From Okamejei kenojei (Eukaryota), in contig CM069149.1 of assembly GCA_035221665.1 (NCBI GenBank), positions 35,402,001-35,466,000 of the forward strand: a DNA stretch of 64,000 nucleotides. The letters run 5' to 3'. Below, piece by piece: positions 138-35,370 of the stretch (its first letter is position 1; each line of letters begins with the position of its first letter). The notes beneath the pieces are model-generated. The model was not told the DNA's origin. It worked only from the letters and a program-made list of their open reading frames with translations, and did no database searches. The position numbers and the translations under genes were made by a program.

Positions 138-219
138 GATTCATTATTGGATTCTGATGCCCCCTCACAAAGTGCTATTGGAACACAGAAGCGTGCCCTG
201 TTGTCACTCAACACTGCAG
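138..219 (+). CDS. CAPRIN2: Caprin-2 internal coding exon (DSLLDSDAPSQSAIGTQKRALLSLNTA)
   Basis: tag acceptor ending 137, gtaag donor at 220; 82 nt, phase 0 to 1; 'DSLLD' resembles the caprin NF(I/M)Q-(D/E)S(M/V)LDF segment; phase fits the next exon. Confidence 0.8.
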
Positions 220-1176
220 GTAAGACACTCATTACACCTCTCCCTGCCAAGACTCTAATACAGCATAGTTATACAGTATTGACTTGCAATGCATGTTAAA
301 ATGTACTGGTAGTTAACCAGCCGGTGCCCATTCTAATCTAATGCACAGTTAAACTGATCTTGTTAGTCGTACAGTTGCTGTAATTATGGGAAAGTTTTGA
401 GTTGACAATTTCTAGTGCTAGCTCTCCAGCAGATTTAATGTCAGGAGTAGAGGAACAGCATCAGTATATTGCATGTGACAACTACAGTAGTAATTCTATT
501 GCAATACCAATTATGGCGTTTTTTTTTGCTGTCATCTTGACCTGATTAGATTGCATTTTTCTCCCCCATTATATTTGGGAAAACTATTTAGTTGTAAACG
601 AGCCAAAAAATGTCTCCCGCACTTCTGTTCAAAGGTACATTGGAGAGTGAAATTAGCATTTTGTATGACCACCTATTGATTTTCCACATAAATTTATCGT
701 GCTGTCTAACACTGATTATTTCTTGAATATTTGGTGGCCAGAATGTAATATTTTGTCTCTTGCAGAGAGAGCTGATATTTTGAAGTATTGTCCTTTAAAT
801 ATAAGGCAAGCTTTGGGTTGAAAATCCATAAAGGCCTATATTGATTCCAAGCTTATCTTGTTTTTCTTTCCCTTTGAATTTTTCTCACACAATTCACCAG
901 TATCTTTGATTTGTTTCAAACAGCTGCATGACCAACCTCTCCACTGAACTCTCCATTCTCCTTAACATTTAGTGACTTTTTGTTTCTTGCACTGGTCTGA
1001 TCTCCTGTTGCCTAAATGCACCTTTTTGCACCCGATTGCTTTTTGAAACCTCCTTGGAATGCATTGTTTGACTTTGCTATTCCTGCCTGTCATACTACCC
1101 CTTTTTTTTAACTTGATGCATTGCTATCCCCCTCTCCTCAATACCCTGTAATTCTCAACTATCTTGTTATTTTTAA

Positions 1177-1333
1177 CATGGATAGGTGATGTTTTGGGTC
1201 GGGACTCTTCAGAACAAAGAAGTGTCCTGATCCAAAATGTCACCTATCCATGAACTCTGGCGATGCTGCCTGACACAGCGAGTCATCCCTGCATTTTGTC
1301 TTTCCTTGGTAAACTAGCATCTGCAGTTCCTTG
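1177..1333. repeat. Degenerate palindromic Penelope-derived repeat
   Basis: CATGGATAGGTGA...TCACCTATCCATG inverted pair plus GCATCTGCAGTTCC tail shared with other copies. Confidence 0.65.
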
Positions 1334-2111
1334 ATTTTACTTTTATTTTAACGCTAAAAAAAATAAATCCTTGTAGCTGGGCGTTCACAAGACGGTACTC
1401 AAATTGATTGATGTATAGTTCTTGTGCTGGTGTGAAGCAACTTTGGTATAGTTGTATATTTAACCTTTAGAATTGCATTATTTGTTAGTATAAAATTAAT
1501 CGAGCGATTGAGCTAAATGACTAGCCTGATCACTAGTAAATGAGTTGAGTAAACTTTTGTATATTGGATTCTGATACTATTTTAAATTGAACGTTGAAGT
1601 TCAATAGACTATCTGTCTCAATGATACTGGTGCAATGTGATGAACTTGGGTACATGCAGATGAGGCCAAATTTTCCTAAACTGTGGTGTTGGGTGTTGAT
1701 TGCATTTTGTGCAGTATATTTTAAACGTTCCCAAATATCACTCGAAGGAAGTGGAGAACCAATGTTTTCATTGCCATGTCCACAAATTTTGTCATGCTAT
1801 ATTGTCATGTCCAGATGTGTTATCCAACATGCAAATGCATTATTATGGAGGAGAAATATGGCACTTGTGTACTGTACCTTTTGTCCAATGTTTGAAGAAT
1901 ACCCTTGAACACAGGAAATGTTGGCCTGCTTGCTTGTAGCAATAAGTGGAAAAGGGGTAATGAACCAATTACTATTCAGTGGTTGAAGGGCTGATGTTTG
2001 GCAGGACGAGGTCTCTTGCTGCTGTTATACGTTTTTCTTCATGAGTAACAATGTTTAGAGAATTGTTTAAATTATCTGTTCTGTCAGTTTTAACATGTTT
2101 TCTTGGTTTAG

Positions 2112-2161
2112 CTCTAAAAGAACCAAAACAAAAGACAGAAATTGTTCCATCACCATCCAAG
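2112..2161 (+). CDS. CAPRIN2: Caprin-2 small internal exon (ALKEPKQKTEIVPSPSK)
   Basis: Pyrimidine tract plus tag acceptor, aag|gtaag donor; 50 nt, phase 1 to 0, bridges the flanking exons in frame. Confidence 0.72.
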
Positions 2162-2325
2162 GTAAGACTGGTTCTATCCTTAAACTAAAGTTGCTGGAAT
2201 TGGAGACAAGTTACGTGTGGGGGGGGGGTGGTGTTGGCATTTAACATCACACTGTACATGTGGCAAATATACATGTAGATTTGACTTGCAATTTAAAGAC
2301 CAACAAACGACTCCACTGGTAGTTA

Positions 2326-2765
2326 AGGGCCTGTCCCACTTGGGCGACCTAATCCGCGAGGTCTGCCGAGTTTGCCCTTGACTCGTACTCGCAGCATGGT
2401 CGACACGAGGTCATAGAAGGTCTTTGTAACTCTCCTTCATGCTCGAGAGTAGTCCTCAACATTTTTCAACATGTTGAAAAATGCCTGCGAGTAAAAAAAG
2501 GTCGCCATGGAAAAAATCGACACTTTGTTATTCGTGGATTTAGTTGTAGTAGGTCGCCATGTTAATCGAGGGTAGTCTAAGATGGTTGTAGATAGTCTTC
2601 ATCATAGTCGAAGGGAGATCGAAAGAGGTCGTCATCATTCCACTATTCGGTGTCCAATTTCCAGAAGTTAGTCGAAGCTAGTCTTCAACATGGTCGAAGG
2701 AGGTCTTTAACATGACATTTTTTTCAAACTCTCCTAAACTCGCCAATTAGGTCGCCCAAGTCCCT
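2326..2765. mobile_element. Non-autonomous DNA transposon (PIF/Harbinger-like MITE)
   Basis: Left TIR AGGGCCTGTCCCACTTGGGCGACCTAAT; right TIR ATTAGGTCGCCCAAGT..CCCT with a small deletion; TTA on both flanks. Confidence 0.75.
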
Positions 2766-3149
2766 TTAATGTATACCGGACACCCAAGCTGAGATTTTAC
2801 CTAGCCTGTAAAAGATGTTGGGTTTTAGATATTTCTGCAATTTTGCTTCTGACTATCAATGTAGCCCTGCAAGTGCAAAAGACCATGGAGTAAAAATCTG
2901 TTCCTTTCTCAGCCTGCAACAGAATTAAGTGTCCTTGCCAATACTGGAGGTAGTTCTGGTTCTGATGACCAGTCTTCATTATCTGATTTTGCATCGCCAC
3001 AGGTAAGCTAATTTTGATAATTAAACATGGAATATATTCAGTGCTTGGTTTGAACAGCATCTATTTAAGTACACTAGAAAGGAAGCGATGTCTGTGGGGT
3101 GGTGGGCAGAGGAGATTAAATGACAAATGTTGGATTACAGATGATGGAA

Positions 3150-3281
3150 ATAGAAACATAGAAAATAGGTGCATGAGTAGGCCATTCAGCCCTTTGAGCC
3201 AGCACAGCCATTCAATATGATCATGGCTGATCATCCAAAATCAGTATCCCATTCCGGCTTTTTTCCCCATATCCCTTGATT
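3150..3281 (-). mobile_element. CR1 LINE 3'UTR fragment
   Basis: ATAGAAACATAGAAAATAGGTGC...GGCCATTCAGCCC is the reverse complement of the CR1 tail. Confidence 0.8.
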
Positions 3282-4077
3282 GTATGTTTAAAAGATGGCT
3301 TTGGTGAGTGTAATGATGGGGAATAGTTATACAGCATGGGAATGGACACTTTGGTTCCATCTTACCCAGGCTGACCATGTTGCCTACCCATGTTAGACCC
3401 ACTTGCCTGCATTTGGACCCTATTCCTCTAAACCTATTCTATCCATGTACGTCCAAAACTTGTAATTGTACCTGCCTCAACTAGTTCCTCTGATAGCTCG
3501 TACCAAACACCCACATGACAATTTCTAATCTGATAAAATAGATTCTGCCCAACATTCCTATCAAACTTGGTAATCGTTCACATTCAGTCATTAGCAAACT
3601 GATCTAAAGTTCTGAAAAAGCTAGTTGCCCTTTGCTTGAATATAGTGTAGCATTTGATTCTACTTGCTATGTTGTTTAGAACGCAAGAGCTGATACATCA
3701 GGAGGCTTCGGGTTTAAATCATCCTAAATCAAAAATTCCAAAATGCCATGTGCTTCTGATATGTACCCTCTTTCCTCGCCCTAGTTATCTGCAGAGCTCG
3801 ACACCACTGCTTCAATCTTGACCTTTGGTCCCCTGTATTTGTTAACTGGATTGAAGTTCCTCACTGGTACTTGTTTTCTGAGTTTATACATTTGTCCACA
3901 CAAGTTGGCTCTTGTGGGGAAAAATAACTCTTTAGCCACTTCATGTTCTCAACTGTCTATTTTAAGATGAGAACTTCATGGAGGTGCATCGCCCCTAGGG
4001 TGAAGTTGAAGTCGCTAAACAAGTACACTTAAGATATCTTAAGTGGTCAATGTGTATAAACTACTTTTTTTTGCCAG

Positions 4078-4191
4078 GTTTCAAGTGCACAGAATTCAGA
4101 AAATGAAGTGTTCACTACTCCACCCCAAGTATACAAAACCAGTACACCCATTACTGAATCTTTAACACACTTGTCACTGGAATCAAATCAG
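4078..4191 (+). CDS. CAPRIN2: Caprin-2 internal exon (VSSAQNSENEVFTTPPQ...LESNQ)
   Basis: ttttttttgccag acceptor, cag|gtgag donor; 114 nt open, phase 0/0; S/T/P-rich like caprin low-complexity regions. Confidence 0.8.
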
Positions 4192-4992
4192 GTGAGGCTT
4201 TTGTTTTTTTTCCATCTGAAAATTGGAATTGTTGAATTTATTTAAACTACATTTGTACAACTGTATAGTTAAAGCTGTCAGAAACCTCATTTACTTAATT
4301 GTTCATAATGCAAAATGTTCGAGGAAATGTGTAGTTCTGAAATAATCATTGGGAAAATCTATTTTAATCATGATCAATACTGATATTAATGGAAAACTGT
4401 GCACAATTATGTTTTTTCCAGCTCCGATGGGATAAGATAACTTGAATGTGAAATGACCAAAATAACAAAATACGGATAATACAGGAGATAATATGCTTAA
4501 CTTGTACAGTGAGAAAATTGTTGGAAGAATTCAGCAGTCAAACTACATCCATGGAAGGAAACCAATATTTCAGTCAGTGACCTTTCATTATAGCCCCATT
4601 GAGCAAGGGTGGCTGTCTCAAAACATGAACTAATTTCTTTTTCCATGGATGGTGCTTCGCTGGCTGAGTTCTAGCATTGTTTTTATTGCAGTGCGTGGAA
4701 TTAAAGGGAGTATTTTGACTACAATCTGATCATGTTTTGTGTATTGATTGTGCAATTAATAAACATTGCCACTTCAACTGTCTATTTCAATCTGCTTATT
4801 GCAAATATCAGACTTATTGCAATCTGCTTTAAAAACCAGCCAGGCATTAAATTTGCTGGTTGTATGTTTATGGTCAGTATGGACTAACTTCCTGCATGTT
4901 GACAGTTAATTGCTATAATCATCTGGATTGGAAACTAATTTACTGCTGTCTATTGGATTCACTATTCCTTGTCTTATCAATTCCACCACCAG

Positions 4993-5124
4993 ACCTCTTT
5001 GACCAATGACCAGACTGCCTCAAGCACAGCAATAACGCCAGCATCCCAAGGACCGGTGCTTCAGACTCCAGTCAGCACTTCTCCAATTAGTACAAAGGCC
5101 ACACCTTTTCAGTCTATGCACACT
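4993..5124 (+). CDS. CAPRIN2: Caprin-2 internal exon (TSLTNDQ...KATPFQSMHT)
   Basis: cag acceptor, gtaagt donor; 132 nt; ends in PFQSMHT, matching the caprin HR2 PFQSMQT-VF motif. Confidence 0.88.
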
Positions 5125-5180
5125 GTAAGTGACTTGAGACTGATTTAATCTTTGACATGGTTGACCTCTTGTTGCCCATC

Positions 5181-5475
5181 TTTAGACTTTAGAGGTACAG
5201 CACGGAAACAGGCCTTCGACCCACTGAGTGTGCATCGGCCAGCAATCCCCGTACCCTAACACTATCCTATATACCAGGGACAATTTACAATTTTACCGAA
5301 ACCCATTAACCCACAAACCTGCACCTCTTTGGAGTGTGGGAGGAAACCGGAGCACCTGGAGAAAGCCCATCGCGGTCACAGGGAGAACATACAAACTCTG
5401 TACAGACAACACCCGTCATTAGAATCGAACCAGAGTCTAGCGCTGTAAGGCAGCAACTCTACCACTGCGCTGCCC
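5181..5475 (-). mobile_element. HE1-like tRNA-derived V-SINE
   Basis: Reverse complement of tRNA-like head (GGTTCGATTC B-box), V-domain GTTCTCCCTGTGACC...GGTTTCCTCCCACACTCCAAA and CR1-type tail. Confidence 0.82.
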
Positions 5476-5963
5476 GAGGCCATTTATGTATGGTGGATGG
5501 CATCTCCATATTTACATACTTCCTAGAGGGAGGAATTGGAAGAAGGGCATTGATTCAGGATCACCACGTAAAACGAGTTGAGTTGGCATTGGCACTCCCT
5601 ACTAGCTTGCCAGTACAGGAAGAGAAATTGTAAAATAACTTGATGCTGGTTTAAAAGGAAAGTTGTAGTCATTTTGCAAGTTACTTTTTTTATTAAGGTA
5701 AATTAGGCCCAGTTTTGCCAGGCTTTTTATCAGACTCCTGAATGATTGAGTTTGTTATTGTGCAATTTCACAGAGGATGCTGAGTGGAATGTAGAATTGT
5801 TAATGATATTTGGCATGATCCTTTAAAGGAAATTGGTGAACATCCAAAAATGGAATAAGGATGCATTGATTTGTCGATACATTTGCTTTAATGAAAATAT
5901 GGGCAAGATTTGAATATGAATTAGATGTCCATGTAATTTAAAAAGAGGTTGACATTTACTTGG

Positions 5964-6190
5964 TGTAAGAAGGAACTGCAGATGCTGGTTTAAACCAAAG
6001 AGACATAAAGCTGGAGTAACTCAGTGGGTCAGACAGCATCTTTGGAGAAAAGGAATAGATGACGTTTCTGGTTGAGACACTTTCAGATTGAGAGCCTGAA
6101 GAAGGGTTTTGACCCGAAACGTCACCTGTTACTTTTCTCCAAAGATGCAGTCTGACCCGCTGAGTTACTCCAGCTTTTTGTATCTCTTTG
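5964..6190. mobile_element. Palindromic (head-to-head) Penelope-derived repeat with hammerhead-like core
   Basis: Two inverted copies of the same unit; + strand CTGAAGA-A-GGGT(TTTG)ACCC-GAAA-CGTC at 6096-6123. Confidence 0.78.
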
Positions 6191-6746
6191 ACATTTGCTT
6201 GGTCAGGAGGCACTTCTGCAGCCTCAGCAGTAGAGGGAGCATGCTTTGTGATACTTAATGTATTTTTCCAGGCATTGGGCAGATTTTCCACAATGGCAAT
6301 CCAGACTACTGTTAAAGAGCAACTAATATTCTTTTCCATTGTGTCCGGATTAGGTGTTTTTAACAAGAAAACCACTTTGATTATTAGAATTGTACTGTAA
6401 GCCTTTTATAACCTGGAGCTTAATACAGTATTGCCAGTGTAGCTGTTTGCCTTTATTGCATGTTTCATGCTACAAATGCAAGTTGTTTTAATGAATGTAA
6501 ACCTCCAACCACTGTAACCAAAAGTAATGATATCCTTTCTACAGGTATTTAATGGTCCCGTGTGTTTCAAACCATTCTATTCTTATTGTAAACAAGACTT
6601 CTGTTTAATTTTATCTGGGTCCTTGATTCAAAACATCTAAAGATGTGTTGTCCAGAATAGAGCTGGTGTTTTGGCAATTGGATTTTTTTGTTTCATGCCA
6701 GTTATTTTATTTGAACTTTATTGCTAACATTTGCAATAATATGTTG

Positions 6747-7278
6747 GAATTTCCTTCCAACCTAAAATTCAAAATGTGATGGAATATTTGGATTCAGTTT
6801 GATTTCAGCTCATCTGTTAAGAACAATTCATGAGTTTATGCCTCGTTATAACCTTCCCCTCAGCCAACAATAAACCATTCTACATTTCCTTTGGACCTTT
6901 TCTAATGTTCTTTTTCTGAGATTGAATCTGAGCAATTAACAAATTGTACATCAACTGTCGTGTTTTGACAATTTTGAAGAGGGATTATAGGAAAGAGGTG
7001 GGCTTCAATCACTATTGTATCAGCGAGGTTTTGGAGAAGCTTCCAGTGTTTGAAGTGGTTTTCTAATGTGTCTGGTCAGAGGAGAGGGAAACTAGAGATA
7101 TGGAGGGGTAAGGTGTGAAAATGACATCAAAGCAGATTATGCTCAAGGAAATGTAGAATGGTTCATTGTTGGCTGAGGGGAAGGTTATAATGAGGCATAA
7201 ACTCTTAACAGATGAGCTGAAATCAAACTGAATCCAAATATTCCATCACATTTTGAATTTTAGGTTGGAAGGAAATTC
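6747..7278. repeat. Long inverted repeat (arms 6747-6891 and 7145-7278)
   Basis: Arms are complementary over about 134 bp, with about 2 mismatches and one 11-nt indel by manual alignment. Confidence 0.92.
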
Positions 7279-7406
7279 TGAGCATTAAAGGCATTGGGGA
7301 TCCTGCTTAAAATGTCCAGCGTTTTAGGTCTAACTTAAAGTTTTAAGTCTAACTTTAAAAAATGATTTGTGGTGAGGTGTAGTTAATTTAATGTGTTCTC
7401 TTGCAG

Positions 7407-7593
7407 GTGTTCAAGGTTAATGCGCCCTTGCCTCCACGTGTTGAGCAGCAGGAAGTGAAATCTGAACGCTCTTATTCTCCTGTCTACAACCAAAGTTTGA
7501 TAACTGCTAGTACTCAGACACCACCTCAGTCCACCTCTCTGCAGTCTTCACATCTAGTGGAGCAAAATGCACTGACACAAGATTCTTTAACAG
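7407..7593 (+). CDS. CAPRIN2: Caprin-2 exon, HR2 region (VFKVNAPLPPR...YNQSLITASTQTPPQ...)
   Basis: ttgcag acceptor, cag|gtaag donor; VFKVNAPLPPR and TASTQTPPQ are caprin-2 motifs; phase 0 to 1. Confidence 0.93.
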
Positions 7594-7658
7594 GTAAGAC
7601 AATTGCACAATTGAAGCTTGCTATTGGAAGTGTACCTGAACATCTTGACAATCTTTGT

Positions 7659-7923
7659 GTGGCACGGTGGCGCAACAGAGTTGCTGCTTTACAGTGCCAG
7701 AGACCCAGGTTTGATCTTGACTACAGTTGCTGTCTGTATGGATTTTGTATGTTCTCCCTGTGACCTGCGTGTGTTATCTCCAGTTTCCTTCCACATTCCA
7801 AAAACGTACAGGTTAATTGCCTTGGTATAATTGTAAATTGTCCCTAATATGTATAAGATACTGTTAGTGTGTGGGGATCACTGGTCGGTGGGCCTGTTTC
7901 TGCGCTGTACCTCTAAACTAAAC
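7659..7923 (+). mobile_element. HE1-like V-SINE
   Basis: GGCACGGTGGCGCA head, V-domain, tail GGGCCTGTTTCTGCGCTGTACCTCTAAACTAAAC. Confidence 0.82.
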
Positions 7924-8054
7924 ATTTTCTTGTGTCAAGGAATACCAATATTTCCAGGTTTAAAGTGGTTGATTGTATCGAGTTGATGCCTTGTGATCAT
8001 CTTTGTCCTTGTAAACTAAAGATGATGTAGTCATTTATTGTTTTTTCCAATCAG

Positions 8055-8240
8055 AAGAAACTACATCTGTTGCCAATGGAACTCCGATCTTTTTAACTCA
8101 CAATCAGCAAAATACTTTACCAAGACCAAATCAAGCCTACTTTGGGAGTAGAAATGCTGGACGGGGAACCGCACGAGGTGGAAGAGGAATTGGTAATGTT
8201 TACCGTGGCTCGAACAATGGATACAAAGGTGTACAAATAG
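8055..8240 (+). CDS. CAPRIN2: Caprin-2 exon with RG/RGG motifs (...PRPNQAYFGSRNAGRGTARGGRG...GYKG)
   Basis: tcag acceptor, tag|gtaagg donor; 186 nt, phase 1/1; RGG-rich caprin RNA-binding region. Confidence 0.88.
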
Positions 8241-8486
8241 GTAAGGTTAAAAATATAAATTGAGTTTGATAGGGGGAAAAAAGGCTTTTCTTGGGGAAAT
8301 TAGGCTAGAGCTAGTTGGGGTTTAAATGAACCACATCCTCTAGAATTCCTATACAGGTGACCTCAATATACCTGTTTTAGGTAAGTTTCTCCTTTACAGA
8401 ATTCACCAATCACTACCAAAAAAATTTGAGGTACAAAATACCATTTGTGCTCGGAACTACTTGGGAAACCTGTTTCTTAATGCGAG

Positions 8487-8617
8487 TCTGAAGAAGGGTT
8501 TCAGCCCGAAACATTGCCTATTTCCTTCGCTCCATAGATGCTGCTGCACCTGCTGAGTTTCTGCAGCAATTTTGTCTACCTTCGATTTTCCAGCATCTGC
8601 AGTTCTTTCTTGAACAC
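8487..8617 (+). mobile_element. 131-bp Penelope-derived insertion beginning at a hammerhead-like core
   Basis: CTGAAGA 8488-8494, stem GGGTT/AGCCC, GAAA; flanked by 12-bp direct repeat TCTTAATG(C/T)GAG at 8475-8486 and 8618-8629. Confidence 0.75.
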
Positions 8618-9286
8618 TCTTAATGTGAGGTGCTTGATGCAGGAAATCACAATATTAAAAACATTTTAAGGCACCCCTTCACCCCCAGCCACTGTAGCCC
8701 AGCGGTTGTTGTTATTTTTGGCTAAAAAAAAATATCACTTTCTACATCTGTCACTTGTCAATTTAACAAAATCAGATTGCCATGAACACTTGCATCTGCG
8801 TCATTAAGGCATAAATGCATAACAGAACGGTACCAATTAAAACAGTATTTTGGGAGGAAGTCTAACGACATGAGGTGGTTGAGTTGTTACTGATCTCAAT
8901 GGTATGGATAAATGTTTCAGCAGCAGATGAGGGGATTGTTCAGAGTTGAGGTTAATGTTGGTGGATAGTGGACAGTATTCAAATGCAGATTGGTTAGAAG
9001 CTAGCATTGAGCGAAACCAATATCATGAATAGTATGATTTGGCCTAGGATAGTTTACAAAGGAAAAGATAACTTTGGTGGCCTTGAGATGCTTGCAGATA
9101 ACTAGACCAGCTGCTGCTGCCTTCACTGCAGTCTTTGGAACTCTCCCCTTTTCTGAAGTTAGTATTTGCCTTGAGTTAATCTTGCTATACATTTTTTGGC
9201 TGTATTGCTGTTTTTGTGTTTGCTGTTCTTCCGTTTAAGGTGAAACAAATGGTGGAATCTGTTCATATCAGGAGTTGCCAATGCTT

Positions 9287-9400
9287 TCTGAAGAAAGGTC
9301 CTGACCCAAAACGGCATCTGTCAATTTTCTCAACAAATGTTGCCTTGCCTGAGTTCTGGCACTTTTGCTTAAGATTCCAATAGCTGCAGATTTTTTTTGC
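9287..9400 (+). repeat. Degenerate Penelope-derived repeat
   Basis: CTGAAGAAAGGTCCTGACCCAAAAC variant plus decayed tail. Confidence 0.55.
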
Positions 9401-9446
9401 TACATTTGTACCAATGACAGGAAATACTGAGCAGGACAAATTGGAG

Positions 9447-9700
9447 AATAATAATAAATGTATTTGTATAGCACATTTAAAAACAACTCTCATTTAACAA
9501 AGTGCTTCACGTCAGTGCAGGTACTAATTTGATACATACAACGGTAGACAGACCCAACAATACATACATAAACTGTTTACAGCTCTCCCTCGGAGGGGCT
9601 CAAAAACGCTCGGGAGTAGAAATGGGTTTTGAGTCGTGACTTAAAGGAGTCGATGGTGGGGGCAGTTCTGATGAGGAGTGGGATGCTATTCCACAGTCTA
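9447..9700 (-). mobile_element. L2 LINE 3' end
   Basis: Minus strand: W-N-S-(I)P...SFKSRLKTH, then AAGCACTTTG...AAATGTGCTATACAAATA tail with ATT repeats. Confidence 0.7.
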
Positions 9701-10303
9701 TGGTCCATATTGATATGTTTAGAAGTTGCGAATGGCTGATTTGGTCTTGGTCAGCTTGCAGAGAAGAGGGGTGAAGTTGGTGGCTGTGATGCCTGCAGCT
9801 AATTGTCCAGAAACAATTAACGTTTCAGTTTAACCTGTTGCCAGATCCAAGAATTTGGATGCCAGATTCTCGTCACTGAGCTACTTAATCAGCTGAGTAT
9901 TTCTTGCATTTTATTTTTACTTTATATTGCCCGACTTCTGTGATTTGAATTTAAATCAGTCCAAAACATCACTTTTAAAATCTTTGACACAAAATGAAAC
10001 AGACATTGCATAAATGTACAGTTTTTTTGAACCCATCAAGAATTCTAATAGACTAGCTTTTAAAGTAACATGAACAGTATTCCATAAATTTGCTGGTGAA
10101 TATATGTCGGCCATGATCAAAAGGCAGAACAGATTCTGGGCTGAATGGCCTAATTATGCTCCTACATCTTGTGATCTAATACTCGTATAATAAATGTGTT
10201 CACCATTATCTTTAAAGATGTGGATGCAAAAAAACATTTGACTGACTTGAGCCCTTCAGAAACATGTGAAAAAAAACTCCATCTTTTGCATCCTTGATGC
10301 TTA

Positions 10304-10611
10304 TGGGCATGTCCCACTTGCGCAACTTTTCCGATGACTGCTGCCCCTGTTATAGGTCGCCGAAAATCATGTTGAAAATCCAGCAGCGACCAGAACAAAG
10401 TATGACTCTTTGGGTGACTACTCACGATCATACAGGCTTCACCCTGCAACATGTTGCCGGGGTGTTGCCTGCATGGTCATGAGTAGTCTCCTCAGTCGCC
10501 CAAAGAGTCTTACCGTCTTTCTGGTCGCTGCTGGATTTTCAACATGTTGAAAGTTTTCGGCAACCTGCAGCAACCTATAGCTGAAAAAGTTGCGGAAGTG
10601 AGACGGGCCCA
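10304..10611. mobile_element. Palindromic Harbinger-like MITE
   Basis: TIRs TGGGCATGTCCCACTT / AAGTGAGACGGGCCCA, TTA TSD, interior largely self-complementary around TGCAACATGTTGC. Confidence 0.78.
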
Positions 10612-10657
10612 TTACTGTATTCTACTTGGAACTTGAATCCTTGTTTTCTTTCACTAG

Positions 10658-10752
10658 GATATGATGGATACAGAGGAATTCCAATTCCTGCCAATGGATC
10701 TTACGGACCATTCCCAAATAGAGAATATGCAGGGATGCCATACACACCAAGG
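10658..10752 (+). CDS. CAPRIN2: Caprin-2 exon (GYDGYRGIPIPANGSYGPFPNREYAGMPYTPR)
   Basis: ctag acceptor, agg|gtaag donor; 95 nt, phase 1 to 0; GYDGYR caprin motif. Confidence 0.92.
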
Positions 10753-15329: not shown

Positions 15330-15396
15330 GAATCTGGTTACCAGCAGAACTACAAACGTGGTGCAGGAGTTGGGCCTCGTGGGACAATGAGAGGAG
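15330..15396 (+). CDS. CAPRIN2: Caprin-2 penultimate coding exon (ESGYQQNYKRGAGVGPRGTMRG)
   Basis: ttgcag acceptor, gag|gtaatt donor; 67 nt, phase 0 to 1; YQQN(Y/F)KRG caprin motif. Confidence 0.92.
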
Positions 15397-18888: not shown

Positions 18889-20406
18889 CTCTTCTTATTC
18901 TTGAGCTCTCCATTCAACCAACTTCCCTTGCCATGTTTCCAAAACTTTGATTTGCCCTGTCAAGTTGAGTTTATAATGTATCATGAGAATCTTGCAGCAG
19001 CACCACAGGCACAGACTCTGACGACACAGAACATTAAATTATTTTGCATAAAAATCACCAAAGTATTAAAAAAAATATAAGGATGTAGGAAAAAAGACAA
19101 TTGGGGCAAAAGGAGAACTAGAAAGGTCCATGGCAATGCAAGAGATGGTTTGTAATGTTTTGTTGAGGTTGGATTGAGTCGATTTGGTAGTTTTAAGAAA
19201 GTAGCTGGTAATTCCTACCCGAGTATGAACAAGAGGGCGTAGCCTGGATGTTGGTGATAAATGCTGGCTTTTTGAGGCAATATCTCTCATAGATACCATG
19301 TTTTCTCAACAAAGGGATGGGTGCACAATTGTTAAAATCTCTTGGGGATGCACACCTTAATCCAATGTGCTCAGTTAATCGATGAAGATTGCTTCAGAGA
19401 ATTGCATTCTATGTATGAGTACTAGTGAGACGTACTCTATTGATTAAACTCCATGTTCAAAGGGACTGGATTGGAAGAAACTAATTTTGATTATCAAACA
19501 ATGGTTTATGATACTAGGGAGTGTCAACATTTTCCAGAAACACCACTATGAGCGGCTTGATCATAGTTTGTTAAAGTTCATACTTGAGCCTTCATGGTAC
19601 TCTTTCCTCTTTGGAAAGAAATTCGATCTCATTGTTCCAGATATTAAATTTCCTTGACTTGGAAGCAGTGTCCCTTTGCTAGCACTTCAATCAACAGTAC
19701 ATTATCTATGCTGAACATTTAACGGGAGGCTACATTATGTCAATCCGAATAATGCATATCTTTCAACTTTGTGGATACTACTATGAGACCATGGGAGAAT
19801 GTTTGCTGGTGTCTATAAACTGTGTGAAAGTCTTTTACTTTGGTTATAGTTGAAGTGCTTTTGTGCTTCAAGCACAGGTTATGGTTCTCTCAAACTGAAG
19901 GATGTACTGTGTTACAAGTTGCATTTTTTTTCAATCTGGGATGTTCACTTCATGGGCCCTTGGGGCACAGTATCGTCAAACAAAATCAAGTAATGGTTTG
20001 TAACGTCTGATTTCGATTCTAATGCCTACTTTAATTATCCAGATTGATCACGTTTCCATTTTGCTTGGCATCAGCACATCCTTTTTATCCCATGTAACAA
20101 ATCATAAATTTAAATTAAAGTGGTTGGTGCATTTTATGCAAACTGAGTGCTAATCCTCCACCCATAATGCAGATACTTTCTAATTGATGCAATTTTAAAC
20201 TGCGTTTGTAGAATTAAGTGATGAACAAGAATGAGCTATGAAGAACTAAAACTATGTACCGAGTTGTGTTAAATCATTTGTTTCTAAAGCCCACTTAATG
20301 TGTAGTTAAGAAATTCCTGTTAATTGTTTAGATCATGGTAAATGTGGTAACTCTATAAACATAGTGGAAGGTTTCTCAACCCACACAGGTCTTAATTACG
20401 TGACAG

Positions 20407-20975
20407 CTGGTTGGAGCGATTCATCTCAGCTGAGCAGTCCAGAGCGAGACAATGAACATTTCCACAGTGTGGATTCTGGCCTGGGAGACTCTCGAAGCCT
20501 TACTCCAGTGGATATGCCAGTGACCAGCCAAGCTACCACCCTCTTGCCAGTGCACATTTATCCTCTCCCTCAACAGATGAGAGTGGCCTTCTCTACAGCA
20601 AGGACCTCTAACTTTGCCCCTGGATCACTAGACCAGCCCATTATCTTTGATCTACTGCTCAATAACCTCGGAGAAACATTTGACTTCCAGTTGGGGCGAT
20701 TTACTTGTCCTGTGAATGGCACTTACGTCTTCATCTTTCACATGCTGAAGTTGGCTGTGAATGTGCCTCTCTATGTAAATTTGATGAAGAATGACGAAGT
20801 CCTATGCTCTGCTTATGCCAATGATGGTGCCCCCGATCATGAGACTGCCAGCAACCATGCTGTTCTGCAGCTTATCCATGGAGATCAAGTCTGGCTGCGA
20901 TTACATAGAGGTGCCATCTATGGAAGCAGCTGGAAATATTCTACCTTCTCTGGATACCTCTTGTATCAGGACTGA
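20407..20975 (+). CDS. CAPRIN2: Caprin-2 terminal coding exon, C1q globular domain (AGWSDSSQ...STFSGYLLYQD*)
   Basis: ORF 20364-20975 is closely similar to the vertebrate CAPRIN2 C-terminus (RVAFS, DQPIIFDLLLNNLG, GRFTCPVNGTYVF, YSTFSGYLLYQD); phase-1 acceptor ending 20406, with an alternative in-frame acceptor ending 20388. Confidence 0.97.
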
Positions 20976-21264: not shown

Positions 21265-21270
21265 AATAAA
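21265..21270 (+). terminator. Probable poly(A) signal for the C1q-containing CAPRIN2 mRNA
   Basis: AATAAA about 290 nt after the stop, followed by the GT/T-rich element gttggttggtgttttt at about 21286-21301. Confidence 0.55.
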
Positions 21271-23662: not shown

Positions 23663-23663
23663 T

Positions 23664-23707
<44 letters not shown>
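23663..23707. repeat. (CT)n(CA)n microsatellite
   Basis: Directly visible. Confidence 0.95.
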
Positions 23708-23710
<3 letters not shown>

Positions 23711-26404: not shown

Positions 26405-27726
26405 GAGATCTTGCATTTAAAGTCACCACAAAAATCTGATTTCAATGAAAAATCATGTTCAACATTTGGGAATTGACGGCAGATCATGAACAGCAGGGCC
26501 AATTAGTTCATTAATATATTTCACAATTTCCACTGGAGTCTGAGAGTTACCAAAGTCTATAAATCGTTCTGATGATTTAAATCAGTTAACTAAATTGTAA
26601 TGCCGAGTGCTGCGAAACTAGGGTAAAAATTCGCAAAGTTGTGATTTATTTATGCAAACACATTTCCAATTTACTGTTTTTTGCAGGTCTGGCAATAGTG
26701 TTAAATCCACTGTTTTACTTCTAAAGCAAAATACTGCAGGTGTTAAGAATGAAGAAATAAAAACAGAAAATGATGAAGGTGCATGTTGAGTATTTCCACC
26801 GTTTCCTGTTTTTATTCCATGGTTTTACTTGACCTTTTTTCCTCTTCTCACCCTAGAAAAAAATACAGCTACAGATTTGCAGTGCTGATGGGAATAATTT
26901 GAATGTACTGTAGCTTCATCTCTACTGTAGCTCAGTATATAATATCAATACATAGTAATGGTTAAAGTTTAGATTTACCCACCTACTGAATTTTACATTT
27001 AAATTATTTTGTACAAATGGGCACAAGTATTTTCTGCACATTTTCCGCATGTGGTTATTCTTTCATTCCATTTATTCCATCTCATCCAATGACATATTCT
27101 ATTCCCCTTTTACATCTGTTGTATGTTGTTTGCCTCGACTACTGCCTGCATCTATTGAGCAAGCGATGCGTGTGCTACAACCAGGGCCTTGTGACATCAA
27201 CAAAATGCTGGAGTAACTCAGCGGGACATCCAGCGTCTCTGGAGACTCCAGCATCTTGTGTCTATCTCCGGTGTAAACCAACATCTGCAGTTCCTTCCCA
27301 GACTTGTGATAGACTGCTGTTTCCCCATGATTTCAGATGTGGAAGGTCTTTGGTAACCAACCCAAGGTTTCCTTTATACATATTAATTTTGCATTTACTT
27401 TCTATGTTAATCTATTGTACTGATTGCAATCAACACTTTTGAAACGGTTCATTTCTGTATCTATGCATAATATTGAGTCATATCTTCTGGTGACCAGCGA
27501 GCTCGTGGCCCTTATTATTGGGTCGAGCATGGTTCTGGGTCTGACAGAAGCCTGTCTCCGAATTGATCAGTGTGACCCTGGTCTACATGGGGTCTTCCTG
27601 ATGCTGTTGCTCCACCCTTAAATGGCCTTAACAGATGGGGGAGACTGCCTTGGGGATCGCTGACTGTTAGGTTCTTGAAAAATAATGCGGAAAATAAATT
27701 CTATGTTTGCACTCAGATATTACTAT

Positions 27727-28062
27727 TTTAATTTATTGTCACGTGTACCGAGGTAAAGTGAAAAGCTTTTATTGCGTGCTAACCTGTCTGTGGAAAGACA
27801 AAACATGATTACAATTGAGCCATCCGCAGTGTACAGATACATGATAGTCCCTTTAACATGTAGTGCAAGATAAAGTCCAGTAAAGTCCAATTAAAGATGG
27901 TCCGAGGGTCTCCTATTAGATGGATAGTAGCTCAGGACTGTTCTCCAGTTATTGGTAGGTGGTTCTGTTGCCTGATAACAGTTGGGAAGAAACTGTCCCT
28001 GAAACTGTCGGTGTGCGTTTTCACACTTCTATACCTCTTGCCTGATTGGAGAAGGGAGAAGA
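27727..28062 (-). mobile_element. Rex1/Babar LINE 3' fragment
   Basis: SGKRYRSVKTHTDSFRDSFFPTVIR C-terminal motif (ORF 27932-28120) followed by a 3'UTR ending ACAATAAA. Confidence 0.78.
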
Positions 28063-29553
28063 ATTTTATAAATCTTTTAAATTCTACTGTCTTTTGAAAA
28101 TTTTCCATAATTGACCACAAAGGATTAAATAGCTAAGACCCAAATTAAAAAACAGCACTGCAAAGTTTCTGAATTACTAGCTGAGGTGTAAGCAAATTAG
28201 TAAAATCGGTTAGATTAGACTAACTAGATATGTAATTGTGGCTCAAAGATTGGTGTGGGTTAAATGAGTTCCAATTTGTGAGGTTTTGGGCAGTAATACT
28301 AGGAAATAAGAAAGGTGTTCCTTTGTGATGGTTTGGGGATCTCGGGAGGAAACTCACACTTTGAATAGTAGTGTAGAATGAATACAGGTGAGGAGAATTC
28401 GAAAAGTTTAAAAAAGATATGGTGATAATAAAGGGGAGCATAAGAAAGGAAATGCCTCCCAATTATATTCAGAGTTGGGGAAACTGTTTAAAAACTTACA
28501 TGGATACACAAAGCATTAAATACAAGATGATTAAATGTAGCACATTTATGTCTCTGGATGATTCAATAGTCATTGTAGAAGATTGGGAATTAAATATTCT
28601 ATGATTTTCAGAAAGGCAAAATAGAAAGGGAGATGATTCTGGTGAAATTACTATTAGAGATGTGCCCACCTTCAATTGCAGTGGGATATATTCCAGTGCA
28701 ACGAGCTCCGTGTTGATGTATTTGTTTACTGGTTAGGCAGCACTGACGTGTTGATGTGTGTAACTGGTAAGACGGTCATGGAAAATCTGCCTTTGGTATG
28801 TCATTTTGATTTGACCTGGCTGTAAACCTGATTAATTGAATGGATTTGTGATCATTCTGAAATGCTGAATTTGATGTGCAGAAAGGGCTGTGTAGATTAA
28901 TCCAACTGATATTATTCCATGAAAAATATGATAGAGGGATTGAAGTGTGCATCTTTATGTTGGAGCTTTGATAGTGCAGAGACACTCTTCTGCCAACATA
29001 ACTGAATAATAGGGTGAAGCAGCATTGTCTCTTTTTGTAATCTTTGGTGCTCTTTACAGCTAACTAAACACCTTTAAGTATAGTTGCTGTAGTAATTTAG
29101 GAAACTTGGTACTCAATATGGGTACAACACAATCTCTTTACAATGAGATAACAACTCAAGTCATCCTTTGAGTATTACTTAAGGGGAGATTATCTGCCAC
29201 GACATTGGTGCAAACTATCTGTTCTTCCTTGGGGGGGAAAAAATGCCCTGGGATATTTTGCACATTCTTGGAATCTCACTTTGACCATCTCCATTTCAAT
29301 GCTCGTACCTCTGCCAGAGCAGCATTCTCTCACCGAGTGTCATCCTAAACCCTGGAGATCGACATGAACTCACGATATTCAGTTAGATTAATTTTCAGTG
29401 TATGCTCTGCTAACGTAGCAAAGCAAGTTCAGTCAGAAACTGGGCCATTGCACTGTTGCACACAATAACTGGAGCCTTCGATTTGATGCATTGTACAGGA
29501 TACTCTGAACAGAAAAGTCAAACTTGCTGACTTGGGCTCATTTCTTTTTGCAG

Positions 29554-29594
29554 GTCATGGCATCTCACCACAAATGAGGCTGACGCATGAATAA
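29554..29594 (+). CDS. CAPRIN2: Candidate alternative (C1q-less) terminal coding exon of Caprin-2 (GHGISPQMRLTHE*)
   Basis: Branch-point-like ctgac 29527-29531, tttctttttgcag acceptor, phase-1 fit to the donor at 15396, PQM motif like the CAPRIN1 tail, followed by 3'UTR-like sequence. Confidence 0.55.
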
Positions 29595-30210
29595 ATTACT
29601 ACCACAATCAAGTTTGCACAGTTTTAACAGTTTACAATACACACTTCTCACAGTCTGTTACAATAGACAAACAAAAATCATTTTGGCGGCATTAATCATG
29701 CCCTCTCCCGTTTCATCAAAGACTGTATACAGGCACGCTCTTATTCTGGTTCCCTTTGCGATTCAGACTAACGGGAAATTGAACTTTTAGCTAATTGAAC
29801 TGCTGAAACAGCTTTTAAATGATGAAAACATAGTGTGTTGAGGGTGCATAAAAGTTCATGCTAGTTGTATTAGATACAACCATTGCTCAAGTGCTCAAAA
29901 TGTATATTGTGGAAAATATTTTTTTTGTGTATGACTGCTACACTGTTGATGCCTTGCTTACATTTAAACATGTACAGTATTTTTATTCAAACTATAACAT
30001 GACAAAAGCAGCAATGTTATTTGTATTGTAACTCCTATTTCATTATTTCATCTGAGGAATGAAATCGCTGCCGTCATCTGTTAAACTGGATTTGAAATGC
30101 GGCATAAACTGTAAGGGTATAGTATTTCTCTGCTTTTAAGACGTTTCAAAATTTTAAAAGAAGTAGTCAATTTGCTGTTTCCTGGATATATATGTATATT
30201 GTTTACTGCC

Positions 30211-30266
30211 ATTAAATTGTATGTCAAAAAAGACAATAAAAGATTCTCTCTAAACGTGGGTGTTGT
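30211..30266 (+). terminator. Candidate distal poly(A) site
   Basis: ATTAAA 30211-30216, AATAAA 30235-30240, upstream TGTA motifs and downstream GT-rich gtgggtgttgt. Confidence 0.55.
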
Positions 30267-32956
30267 AGATAAATGAAGTAACCACCCTCTTTTTTGGCTC
30301 CATTTTCTGCTCTTGAAAGTAAATAGCCTTTTAAAAGTAAAAGGTTTATCACACTAAATGAGGAACAAAAAAGTCCTTCAACCAAATTTTGGAACGATGA
30401 AAGGCACTGCCCTTAGCTCCACACTCCCATCCCTATAACTGACCAACTTTCAGACTCAGATTAATTTAGCAATCTTTTTCTTGACCATAGGATGACACTA
30501 TCAAGAATGCCTCTTTCGAGTTTTATATTATCATACACCAAATCTCCCTCGTGGAATCTTTTTCTGCAACCCCTTGCCTATCCAATGCTATTCCTTCCAC
30601 ACCATACAATTTTTCGATCTTTGAAAACTCTGCTGCCTGTGATGTCCACTCCATTGTGGTCACACATCTCCCCTGTGATGGCTGATCTTCATGACTCCAC
30701 GTCTGACAACACCATTTAAAAATCCTTGTTTTCAAATCTCTTCACGGCCTCACCATATCTTTAGCTTTATAATGCAACGGGATCCCTACACTTCAAATCT
30801 GTTATCTTCAGTTTTACGTGCTCTCAACATTGGTACCCAATGCTGATCTACTTGCCTTGTTGATGTTTTGAAATTATTTCTCTAATCATTACTATTGTTT
30901 CACATTCTTCTAAGATGAATTTTCAAACCCAACTCTAGCCAAACTTTTGATACTCCTGTAGCTTGATGTCAAATTTTAGAGTAAATGGTTTTGTTATGTG
31001 CTAAAATGGATTTAATATTATTTTTACCCTTTTCCATCTATATTGTCAAAGGCAGATTATATTTTCCAGAAGCAGGGTCCCATCCTTTGAGCCATATGTA
31101 ACAATTTGAAGCATGTTGGATGGAAATAGTTTGTCTCTGTGTTAGCTTTGCAATACTGTCTGCACCAGATATTACACAAGATATCAACTTTATATGTGGT
31201 TAATTACTTCAATACTGTAGATGGGAAAATATGATTTCAGATTACATACTTACAGCTAAAACTACAAATAGTTTGTTTAGAAATTTAGTTATATAGACTG
31301 AAAATAAAATTTCATAAATATTGTATCAACAATATTGTATCAACTTCAATAATTTAAGTTGATTTACAGAACAGTATAATTACGTTGAGACGCAGTCCAA
31401 AACTGGAAAGTTGAGGCATGCTTTAGTGTGTGTAAAACAGATGGGACTTTTTCAAAATATATTCCAGGAAGAAGAACCTTCAAGGGAACTTGTTCTAAAT
31501 GATGACAGTGCCTAGCACTGGAATGTCCAAGAGCAGAAACATGTGCAACCATATTCAACTAGAGTGAAACCTGGCTGTTTTTGAGATATATGCCATCACA
31601 GAAACCAGCTGATTAAATTCACTCCAAGAAATGGCAGACAGTAAACAAATGAATGGGACGGTACACTCCCCATCCGAAGTATTAAAAGACTTGCTCCAAA
31701 ACAAGCAGAGTTCTAGCCAAAATTTTCCAGTGCAGTCACAACACTGGCAACCATCCAACAGTGGAAAGCTGCCAAGAAAGACCCTGTCCTCAAAAAAGCA
31801 GGACAAATGCAATTTAGCTAATTGCATGTGTCTGTTCTCACCAACACAATGATGGAAGATTCAAGCTATATTTATTCACTGTTAATCTGCTTTGTTATTT
31901 TTCAGCAGTCCCTTTCGCCTGACTATATTTCAGTCTTGATTCAGGATTAGGTGAATGAACTGAATTCCAGAGGCAAGTTATGAGTGATTTCCCTCAAAAT
32001 CAGAATGGGGAGGAAGGAATGTTTGTAAAGCTAAGCCAACAGTAATCCCCCAAATCCAGTATCTGGAGATGCACATCATTTGAAAGAGGATGGTTATGGT
32101 GATTCGGGTCATTTAGACCAAAAACACTGCTGCAGCCATTCCTCAGTCGTGCCTTAAGCCCAACCATTTTCAGCTGGTTCTCCTAGATCAAAAAATGAAG
32201 CAGCAACCAGCAAGATCTAGGTAACACATGGGTACCATCTGATAAGCAGAAAGGACCACCTAATCCCCTACTTGTGCGCAATGGCTATCTCTAACAGCAA
32301 CCCTTGGCATTACTATTGCCGAGTCCCCTACCATCAACAATCTGGGAAATCACCATTGACCAGAAATTAAATGGAACAGCCACATATGTCTGCTGGTTAC
32401 TAGAGCAGATCAAAAGCTGTTGTATGTTGAGAACTTCTCCTTCTGATGCCCCAAAGCTATTCCAACACCTCAGGTGTGGCAGGAGCAGGGTGGATATCCA
32501 ATGGGCTGGATGAGTGCAGCTCCAACCACGCTTAAGAAGCTCAGCACCATCAATGACGATGGCATCCCGTCTCCCATTATAAATATTAATTCTCAAGTGC
32601 AAAGATAAGCCCAGCATAGATGTTTTGAAAATCTTGCTACTGAAAATCTTGATCTTTATAAGATTTACATACAGTGTTGTGACCCATAACATTGTTGTAA
32701 CATTATTGGTATATAAAAAATATCTAAGCTAGTGTGTGGATTTGTTTATTCAACAGAATTAAACCAACTGCATGAGTTAAAACTTTTTCAGTTCAGAACA
32801 TGTTCACAGGACTTTGTAAATGAAAGCACATGGCTTGACAGTGATTTTAACATTCAGATAATTAAACATTTTTCTGCTTGGGTAGAATAATCTATTTACA
32901 TAATGTAGCATAGTTATTCTAATTATAATAGTTGTTTTAACAAAAGGGGAGACAGA

Positions 32957-33318
32957 CTGTGGCTCAGCGGTAGAGTTGGTGTCTCACAGCGCCAGGGACC
33001 CAGGTTCGATCCTGACTAAGGGTGCTGTCTACGGAGTTTTTTTACAATAAAGGGGAGGTCATTTAAGACTGAGGTGAGAAAAAACGTTTTCACCCAGAGA
33101 GTTGTCAATTTATGGAGGGCAGTGGAGGCCGAGTCACTGGATGGATTTAAGAGAGAGTTAGATAGAGCTCTAGGGGCTTGTGGAGTTAAGGGATAGGGGG
33201 AGAAGGCAGGCACGGGTTATTGATAGGGGATGATCAGCCATGATCACAATGAATGGCAGTGCTGGCTCGAAGGGCCGAATGGCCTCCTCCTGCACCTATT
33301 ATCTATGTTTATATGTTT
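32957..33318 (+). mobile_element. SINE head joined to a CR1 LINE 3' fragment
   Basis: tRNA-like head 32957-33040, then CR1 ORF2 end (FKTEVRKNVFTQRVVNLW) and tail GGCTCGAAGGGCCGAATGGCCTCCTCCTGCACCTA. Confidence 0.75.
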
Positions 33319-33714
33319 AAATTGGAATACTATGTCAGTTTACATTTCTGGCTGTCCAGTTAATTGCATGTTTACAGATAATAAATAAATGCATTGATTG
33401 TTGATATTCTACCATCTTCAGTAAAGGATTCAAATTGTCCCAGAGATGATAGAATTTTCATTTTTATAATAGGACTATATTGTGCAGAAGCATATATCTT
33501 GTATATATCTGATTTTACTAAATTAGAATTATTTTGGTGATTGAATCATATATGTTGAATCAGATCAACATATATGAAACTGATTCCCTGGGAAGGGGAG
33601 GAAGTTAAGTGTCTCCGTCAAATTCTTCCAAGTGATATTCAATAAGGAGTATTGCTTCATAAGGTGAGCAGGTAGTAAGTTGTGCAGAGTTGTGTGACCG
33701 TCAACTATGGTTGA

Positions 33715-33870
33715 GGGAAAGGTTTGTAGGTTAATTGCCCTCTGTAAAATTGCCACTAGTGTGTAGGGAGTGGTGAGAAAGTGGTATATCATAGAACTGG
33801 TGTGAATGGGTGATTGATGGTCAGTGTGGCCTCAGGAGGGCTGAAAGGCCTGCATGCTGTATCTGAAAAA
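33715..33870 (+). mobile_element. HE1-like SINE 3' half
   Basis: GGTTTGTAGGTTAATTG...AAATTGCC...GGGCTGAAAGGCCTG motifs shared with other copies. Confidence 0.6.
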
Positions 33871-34047
33871 ACGAAACAACATAATCATGGCAGATGTTTT
33901 CCTTTCTCTTTTACCTTCTTCGGAGAAGCTTGTTCGGGACTTTCCCTCTACCTTATTAACATTACAGTTTCCAGCAATTTAAAAAAATAAAATTTCAGAT
34001 TTGAATTGCACAGGTAGGATTTCCACTGTCACATCACCAAACAGGAC

Positions 34048-34497
34048 GTGTAAGAAGGAACTGCAGATGCTGGTTCAAACCAAAGACAGACACAAAAAAC
34101 TGGAGTAACTCAGCTGGTCAGGCAGCATCTCTGGAGAAAAGGAATAGGTGCCAGTTTAGGTCAAGACCCTTCTTCAGACTGAGAGTCAGGGGAGAGGGAA
34201 ACTAGAGATATAGATGGTGATATAGAACAAATTACTTATGTGCAAAAAGTAATTGATCAAGGAAAAGTGGGACCCACAATGGTCCATTGTTGGCTGTGGA
34301 CAAAGTGATTACGAATTATACAATGAAACTCACCAGGATGACAGTGAAACAAGTGCAAGAACTAGGATGAGGGAGAGATATATATAGAGAGAAGGGATGC
34401 AAGAAGGTAGAAAAATCAATCTTCATACTGTTGGGTTGCAAGCTGCCCAAGCATGATGAGGTGCTGCTTCTCCCACTTTACGTTTGGCCTCACTATG
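34048..34497 (-). mobile_element. Penelope-like element 3' fragment (GIY-YIG C-terminus plus terminal repeat with degenerate hammerhead)
   Basis: Minus strand reads, with frameshifts, EAKRK..EKQHLI..LGSLQPN at 34416-34497, resembling the PLE EEQHLIFRLGxLQP motif; then CTGAAGA-AGGGTC stem motif at 34150-34177 and the ...GCATCTGCAGTTCCTTCTTACAC tail. Confidence 0.78.
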
Positions 34498-34604
34498 ACC
34501 AAATAAATAGGGGACCATTTCCCCCCAAAATACAACTGGAAGTACCAACTATGGATGAGATGAGGGACTTTCCAACCCCTCATGTGGGTTATGTGCACTG
34601 GTGA

Positions 34605-35370
34605 GGAGGCTGCGCCATTTCCAACCCAACCTGCCCGTCGGTTCTTTTTTTTGTGCTGTTTTTTGCCTCGCAATGACGTAACCGCCCCGTCACTCCCCTC
34701 CGCCCCGCAATGACGTCACAACCCAACCCGCTTTCGCCCCGCAATTACGTCACTGCGGTCCACGCCGCATTCGCCCCGCAAACACGTCACATCAGCCCGA
34801 CGGAGGGGGGTGGGGGCAAGATGGCGGCGCGTTGCCGGGGCGACCGGAGCCGGAGCCGGAGCCCGCTGGAGGACGCGGTCCGATGGCGAGCTTGTGTTTC
34901 GCGCCACCTTTGAGTGACGCAGAGTGACGAGTGATTGCGGAGGGAGGAGAGAAAAAAGCGCAAAAAAAAAACCACAACACCGAGTGCCCGCGCGGGGCAC
35001 AGGCACAGGCACAGGGGGCGGGGGAGGAGGCCGCACAAAATGGATCCCAACCGGATCATACAGGCGCTGAAAGGCACCATCGACCCCAACCTCAGGATCG
35101 CGGCGGAGACCGAGCTCAATCAGGTGAGGGCTGCATCTCCTCTGCATTCCGGTTACCGGCCGGGGCTTGCGGGTTGGCTCGGCTCCGCTCCTCGCCCGTG
35201 GTCGAGGCCTGGTCTGAGCTCTGGCCGCGGGTTGTGGGGGAAGCGGGTCAGCGGGCCTCAGGAGGAGTGATCCTGAAATTTAGGTTGCTCCTGAAAACCA
35301 GCGACCTTGAAGGTTTCAAGCAAACGCGTTGCATGCCCACAAACCAGGGCGGACGTTCCGTGCACGGATA
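34605..35370 (+). promoter_or_regulatory. CpG-island promoter / 5'UTR of IPO8
   Basis: Abrupt GC- and CpG-rich stretch around exon 1; full CRE TGACGTCA 34711-34718, GC boxes, YY1 motif CAAGATGGCGGC 34817-34828, X-box-like GTTGCCGGGGCGAC 34831-34844. Confidence 0.88.
35040..35123 (+). CDS. IPO8: Importin-8 exon 1 ([28 protein letters not shown])
   Basis: Matches the importin-8 N-terminus; aaaATGg Kozak context; cag|gtgag donor; adjacency to CAPRIN2 favours IPO8 over IPO7. Confidence 0.95.

Follow-up and report, generated by a model that had tools for sequence, protein, structure and literature searches.

The window analysed here, a 64,000-nucleotide stretch of the skate Okamejei kenojei (assembly GCA_035221665.1, contig CM069149.1, positions 35,402,001 to 35,466,000 of the forward strand), contains the 3' part of CAPRIN2, in which two terminal exons with separate poly(A) signals are spliced from one phase-1 donor at 15397. 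The proximal terminal exon encodes the C1q domain and yields a protein of ~990 residues. The distal one adds a 13-residue tail and yields a protein of ~810 residues, which retains the dimerisation domain, Caprin-1_C and the RGG region and is devoid of C1q. The gene displays the hallmarks of Caprin-2, namely the HR1 dimerisation region, the HR2 region (Caprin-1_C), a C-terminal C1q domain and a position in the caprin-2 clade, as judged from a Pfam domain scan and a tree in which near-identical Amblyraja models stood in for the window gene. At least five more CAPRIN2 exons lie 5' of the window, and tblastn maps the remainder of the gene to the window plus 22 kb upstream. The CAPRIN2 features in the window, all on the + strand, are as follows.

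138..10752 (approximate limits), + strand: eight upstream CAPRIN2 coding exons, located by tblastn of Amblyraja caprin-2 on the window plus 30 kb upstream.
15330..15396, + strand: penultimate exon, encoding ESGYQQNYKRG...MRG, with the shared phase-1 donor GTAATT at 15397; from the sequence and from RefSeq models that end identically.
20389..20975, + strand: proximal last exon, encoding a Ser-rich linker of ~60 residues and the entire C1q domain; from identity to Amblyraja and contig starts.
20976..22500, + strand: 3' untranslated region (UTR) of the C1q form, with candidate AATAAA signals at 21265, 21920, 22469 and 22498; from sequence only.
29527..29553, + strand: branch motif CTGAC (29527-29531), pyrimidine tract and acceptor AG (29552-29553).
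29554..29594, + strand: coding part of the distal exon, GHGISPQMRLTHE and then the stop codon TAA (29592-29594); the first G belongs to a split codon.
29595..30270, + strand: 3' UTR of the distal exon, with ATTAAA at 30211, AATAAA at 30235 and a GT-rich element from ~30255.

The 13-residue tail GHGISPQMRLTHE is in phase with the donor at 15397 (phase 1), and the C1q stop codon at 20973-20975 lies 8.6 kb 5' of the distal exon. The distal acceptor has 15 pyrimidines in 20 positions, compared to 10 in 20 for the main C1q acceptor at 20389. A sequence-only reading of the window had proposed this exon, and its acceptor, branch motif, phase with the 15396 donor, stop codon, poly(A) signals and GT-rich element were each found at the coordinates given; cleavage of the distal form would be expected near 30255. 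The same reading had recognised no transposable element here, which agrees with our searches: the stretch is single-copy, with one match (itself) in the 2.76 Gb genome, and shows no repeat similarity to the rest of the window or to 11 other loci. As far as tested, the distal exon is not repeat-derived. A transposon-exonised or cryptic last exon was rejected on these grounds and on conservation in seven species. No Rfam family matched within 20900-35000.

Eight RefSeq models from seven elasmobranch species, comprising sharks and batoids, join the same penultimate exon to a tail that is constant in length at 13 residues and, with the window's tail included, invariant at 8 of 13 positions. Three of 183 proteins end in this tail (Heptranchias X2, XP_067856211.1; Scyliorhinus torazame X8; Mustelus X2), as do five of 49 cluster members (Amblyraja X4, XP_032893601.1; Rhinoraja X5, XP_078273102.1; Pristis X21 and X22; Hypanus X9). 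In the 49-member set, where two clusters are represented by 15 of 17 and 15 of 22 members, the C1q ending is found in 41. The tails of the window and Mustelus are identical at 11 of 13 positions, and the preceding region is 76% identical between Amblyraja and Mustelus. The tail was found in neither the one Leucoraja nor the one Hemitrygon model, nor in any of the Mobula models listed. The distal exon is thus already in the automatic RefSeq annotation, where short caprin-2 isoforms have the same exon, junction and 13-residue tail as the window; they are automatic models whose names carry no interpretation. A literature search, with most subscription papers outside its reach, returned no paper that treats the distal exon or addresses where the C1q exon of Caprin-2 came from. 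The terminal His-Glu pair is invariant in the seven species, and an AATAAA at 29590-29595 overlaps the last codon and the stop; the invariance could reflect this hexamer instead of the peptide.

Ten sequencing runs contain the distal stretch, and the four that the tool guessed to be RNA were analysed (X1 to X4). They come from one study, at most three samples and a related organism, and consist of assembled contigs, not reads, for which 32 of 67,224 aligned pieces and 15 of 241 joints were listed. Contigs begin at 29552 in all four runs and at 20387 in three of four; both starts coincide with an acceptor AG, which also matches the final two letters of the upstream exon. Exactly 25 letters are left unaligned on four contigs, at 20387 in X1, X3 and X4 and at 29552 in X3, and in a contig of 2,054 letters in X2, the 1,869 letters preceding 29552 find no alignment at that place. 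The C1q and distal exons both open with GTC and then diverge. Because of this shared GTC, a fork from the 15396 donor is expected to leave an overhang of 30 - 3 - 2 = 25 letters at an assembly word length that we take to be k=31. The overhangs are thus as expected if splicing forks to the C1q exon and the distal exon, and genomic DNA would not produce this pattern of contig starts and overhangs. In run X1, contig pieces cover 29552-29896 and 29901-30188 of the distal 3' UTR, and depth is near zero beyond 30486; depth and gaps can neither place the 3' end nor rank the isoforms. Altogether, the contig starts, the overhangs and the in-frame RefSeq models of seven species demonstrate that the distal exon has its own 3' splice site fed by the shared donor, and confirm the proposed C1q-less ending as a real and conserved alternative last exon.

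Lamprey and hagfish each possess a C1q-less caprin-1 and a C1q-bearing caprin-2. In a tree of 17 caprin proteins, with the last 190 residues trimmed from the C1q-bearing rows, the nine caprin-2 rows from lamprey, hagfish and gnathostomes form one group (support 100/99). As the C1q-bearing caprin-2 of lamprey and hagfish groups with that of jawed vertebrates, C1q was gained before these lineages split, and the simplest account is a single gain on the caprin-2 stem. Acorn worm and crinoid caprins have no C1q, and the domain occurs in 16 of 150 representatives; of these 16, the four named are vertebrate caprin-2-type proteins. The linker and C1q domain lie together in one phase-1 exon, as for a captured module; the exon is 98% identical to Amblyraja radiata caprin-2. 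An Atlas search for its donor family returned only generic C1q clusters (0.91-0.92). When rooted on invertebrates, the tree places the cyclostome “caprin-1” nearer to caprin-2 than jawed-vertebrate caprin-1 is (83/89, weak), a placement that agrees with the tail similarity described below; the names may not reflect one-to-one orthology.

The last intron has the same position and phase in the skate CAPRIN1 gene (G000:C18:21939494, minus strand), in whose genomic DNA the matching PRG is followed by a GTAAT donor; 18 kb downstream, an acceptor scan located a phase-1 distal exon that ends in TQMTAQEVI. Moreover, where lamprey, hagfish and acorn worm have pairs of caprin isoforms, the two sequences part at the same residue, suggesting that this intron position is probably deuterostome-wide. 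For skate CAPRIN1 itself, two endings are predicted, a donor read-through (GNAQVMRS, with a nearby AATAAA) and the distal phase-1 exon, and the same kinds of ending are seen in bichir, hagfish and acorn-worm proteins.

Read from the exon start, the tails align as GHGISPQMR in the window, GRGISPQMR in Rhinoraja (which begins GRG like that of lamprey), GRGTSPLMK in lamprey, GHGGSPPIK in hagfish and GRGSLPH in acorn worm. We scored the tail by mean BLOSUM62 over the 12 positions after the split codon against five caprin-1 or outgroup tails, the human tail not among them; an 8-position scoring window was post hoc, and the 12-position figures are the fair ones. The gap-free, start-anchored scores are 18 for lamprey, 18 for hagfish and 14 for acorn worm. 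The mean score is equalled or exceeded by none of 2,685 genomic AG/G peptides and by 17 of 3,193 G-started peptides from caprin low-complexity regions. This above-chance similarity is driven by the cyclostomes and acorn worm, and does not extend to bichir or skate CAPRIN1. A protein search with the lamprey tail gave only five lamprey proteins among 697 candidates. Judged from these alignments, the distal CAPRIN2 exon is probably homologous to the last exon of caprin-1 and of the ancestral caprin.

The sequence-only reading had instead aligned GISPQM of the window with GMPQM of human CAPRIN1, a register that is probably wrong, as the best homology is anchored at the exon start against the lamprey and hagfish tails. 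Human GMPQM lies nine residues into the last exon. The skate CAPRIN1 distal exon carries TQM and no PQM, which argues against that register, and PQM was not found in three frames over 27 kb downstream of skate CAPRIN1. By eye, the counterpart of human GMPQM seems to be a motif further along in skate and lamprey caprin-1, TQM/GSM: skate TQMTAQEVI resembles lamprey GSMTAQSVE and human PQMNTQQVN, the last as given in the accessible part of PMC11524581. The two skate distal exons have ATGAGG and ATGAATAA in common, two bases out of step in a weak alignment; such an offset would explain the early stop in CAPRIN2 as a frameshift.

Considering the start-anchored match to lamprey, hagfish and acorn worm together with the shared intron position and phase, we propose, in line with the sequence-only reading, that this conserved alternative last exon likely descends from the terminal exon of the ancestral caprin, which stayed behind when the final intron captured a C1q exon. 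That reading had spoken of possible retention in one lineage; the scope is wider, as the tail spans sharks and batoids.

Several observations weigh against this proposal. The homology rests on about 12 residues, and the best-of-five score is matched by 4 of 2,685 and 33 of 3,193 null peptides. The anchored tail scores -13 against bichir CAPRIN1 and -1 against skate CAPRIN1; at the DNA level, the match between the skate CAPRIN1 and CAPRIN2 distal exons is weak (43 of 2,000 shuffles, 65 of 2,000 genomic controls), and their distal UTRs show no significant similarity (best E 0.044). The cyclostome and acorn-worm intron positions derive from protein isoform pairs, not genomic DNA, and the six caprin-1 rows of the tree do not form one clade (11% of bootstrap trees). 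The expected conservation was seen in seven elasmobranch species, but the tail is absent from all five Callorhinchus and all three Narcine models and from every bony-vertebrate protein retrieved, these being mostly cluster representatives, which hide short isoforms. As to splicing, two of the four analysed runs were flagged “probably DNA” (that none of the runs listed is recorded as RNA speaks neither for nor against), and the predicted 15396-29554 junction, although supported by contigs that start at 29552 with fitting overhangs, is not among the 15 listed of 241 contig joints, in which repeats dominate.

The absence from chimaera models and the lack of anchored similarity to the bichir or skate CAPRIN1 tails would also suit a real but younger exon, exonised from intergenic DNA in the elasmobranch ancestor, whose likeness to cyclostome tails arose by chance in G/P/S-rich sequence; tetrapod C1q-less models use another tail, and such endings can arise repeatedly. 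We consider this origin unlikely, given a gap-free match from the first codon with lamprey, hagfish and acorn worm that no genomic peptide reaches at the mean, a location and phase expected of a displaced ancestral exon, and no repeat origin. Less probable still is an ancestral exon in a gene that had both endings before it was duplicated, the caprin-1 genes having lost the C1q exon. The tree leaves some room for such losses, since caprin-1 is not united in it and cyclostome caprin-1 lies nearer to caprin-2, in agreement with the tail similarity; however, one or two losses would be needed instead of a single gain, and the C1q-bearing representatives that are named are all of vertebrate caprin-2 type. 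In addition, no C1q match with E<0.5 was found on the gene strand across 80 kb of skate CAPRIN1, although a remnant so old would probably be unrecognisable. Finally, low-depth contigs are also present in introns, which, with the junction missing from the joints listed, could speak for splicing noise, or for a distal exon that is part of the downstream gene or of a non-coding RNA unrelated to CAPRIN2. This is highly improbable, as seven independent genome annotations join the exon to CAPRIN2, in frame and with a conserved peptide, and the contig overhangs match the CAPRIN2 donor.

If the distal exon is indeed the ancestral ending, the caprin-2 copy would have received a single-exon C1q module in its last intron between the gene duplication and the jawless/jawed split, more than 500 million years ago, and the old exon would since have been shortened to 13 residues, possibly via a small frameshift. 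The weaker C1q acceptor may let part of the transcripts reach the old exon; splicing to 29554 would follow in those that pass both this acceptor and the poly(A) sites behind it. As the stop codon of the distal form sits in the last exon, nonsense-mediated decay is not expected, in keeping with the established rule. The product had been described as Caprin-1-like, which is apt for its domain content but not for its sequence, as the first ~800 residues remain Caprin-2.

According to the accessible part of PMC2528581, human Caprin-2 residues 1-935 do not rescue a Wnt knock-down, and the middle and C1q fragments each bind LRP5; C1q trimer mutants lose LRP5/6 phosphorylation and keep binding, as far as the accessible text of PMC11480233 tells. 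By analogy, the short protein is predicted to dimerise, bind RNA and bind LRP5/6 via its middle region without trimerising, so that it likely cannot cluster LRP5/6. It would be inactive in Wnt signalling, possibly even inhibitory, and still an RNA-granule protein. The choice of exon would then set the extent to which Caprin-2 clusters LRP5/6. That the short isoform is both Wnt-inactive and inhibitory is a close call, with the balance slightly on the negative side. More doubtful is the broader idea that the pre-C1q form is kept as a regulated isoform, the switch lying between a Wnt/LRP5/6 scaffold able to trimerise and an RNA-granule protein that forms only dimers and poisons the scaffold via shared HR1 dimers, and that vertebrates repeatedly kept such an off-form, as the separate tail common to axolotl and lizard would suggest. 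If this were true, C1q-less Caprin-2 should be sought in mammals.

Among tetrapods, axolotl caprin-2 X12 and Lacerta agilis X8 are C1q-less and have a common Arg-rich tail, QEE...RARGR...YFRRRE.RK (57% over 28 residues, E 1.6e-7), which makes it a second, likewise conserved, alternative ending. Neither this nor other odd C1q-less tails matched the window convincingly (best E 0.025, containing a stop and on the opposite strand).

The C1q exon is opened by three in-frame acceptors spaced 18 nucleotides, at 20371, 20389 (the main one) and 20407, to which the linker variants GFSTQTGLNY, GLNY and AG of chondrichthyan models correspond. Read-through of the CAPRIN2 donor (15397-15434) would give a short open ending, GNYLMTALSGTT, and then a stop; it is the counterpart of the caprin-1 read-through form, and was found in none of the models seen. 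A stretch of a CAPRIN2 intron at ~11500-14000 is strand-skewed and GC-rich and resembles a retrotransposon insertion, as judged from composition and a partial reading. On its 3' side the locus is bounded by the next gene:

35040..35123, + strand: first coding exon of the next gene, with a GC-rich promoter before it.

This neighbour is presumably IPO8; the 28-residue piece encoded by the exon had no Pfam match. Within its GC-rich promoter, at 34701-34791, lies a 37-bp unit in ~2.6 tandem copies with TGACGTCA/CACGTCA-like motifs.

Caprin-2 differs from Caprin-1 by its C1q domain, without which it cannot fulfil its part in Wnt signalling. The locus appears to keep the states before and after the gain of this domain within one gene, and the cyclostome data place the gain in the vertebrate stem. 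It would thereby exemplify how a domain enters via an alternative last exon while the old ending is long retained, and it predicts a natural Wnt-inactive Caprin-2. The reach is confined to one gene family and the exon was already annotated automatically; the evolutionary reading of the exon is new and fairly well supported.

A natural human C1q-less isoform, EEG-1S, was reportedly described by Aerbajinai in 2004. The engineered human Caprin-2 1-935, as presented in the accessible part of Ding et al. 2008 (PMC2528581), has a domain content near-equivalent to that of the natural short isoform, but is artificial. Several human CAPRIN2 isoforms exist, according to the available portion of PMC4641828. 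A close comparison is the caprin-1 last exon (lamprey XP_032815922.1, hagfish, skate, and human Q14444 residues 607-709 in the accessible text of PMC11524581), which, like the CAPRIN2 distal exon, is C1q-less and follows a phase-1 donor after RGG. Both tails begin with G-[RH]-G, and those of lamprey and hagfish also share SP-x-[MI]-[KR]. However, the caprin-1 tails have 21-31 residues compared to 13 in the CAPRIN2 distal tail, and the second ending of caprin-1 is a donor read-through (skate GNAQVMRS), whereas that of CAPRIN2 is the C1q exon. Beyond the caprins, the LAP2alpha isoforms of TMPO and ZNF451, as far as the accessible part of Abascal et al. 2015 (PMC4495291) describes them, likewise carry a new domain on an alternatively spliced exon with the original isoform kept. 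The LAP2alpha exon is retrotransposon-derived and mammalian, whereas the C1q of CAPRIN2 is a cellular module, older than the jawless/jawed split and defining for the gene.

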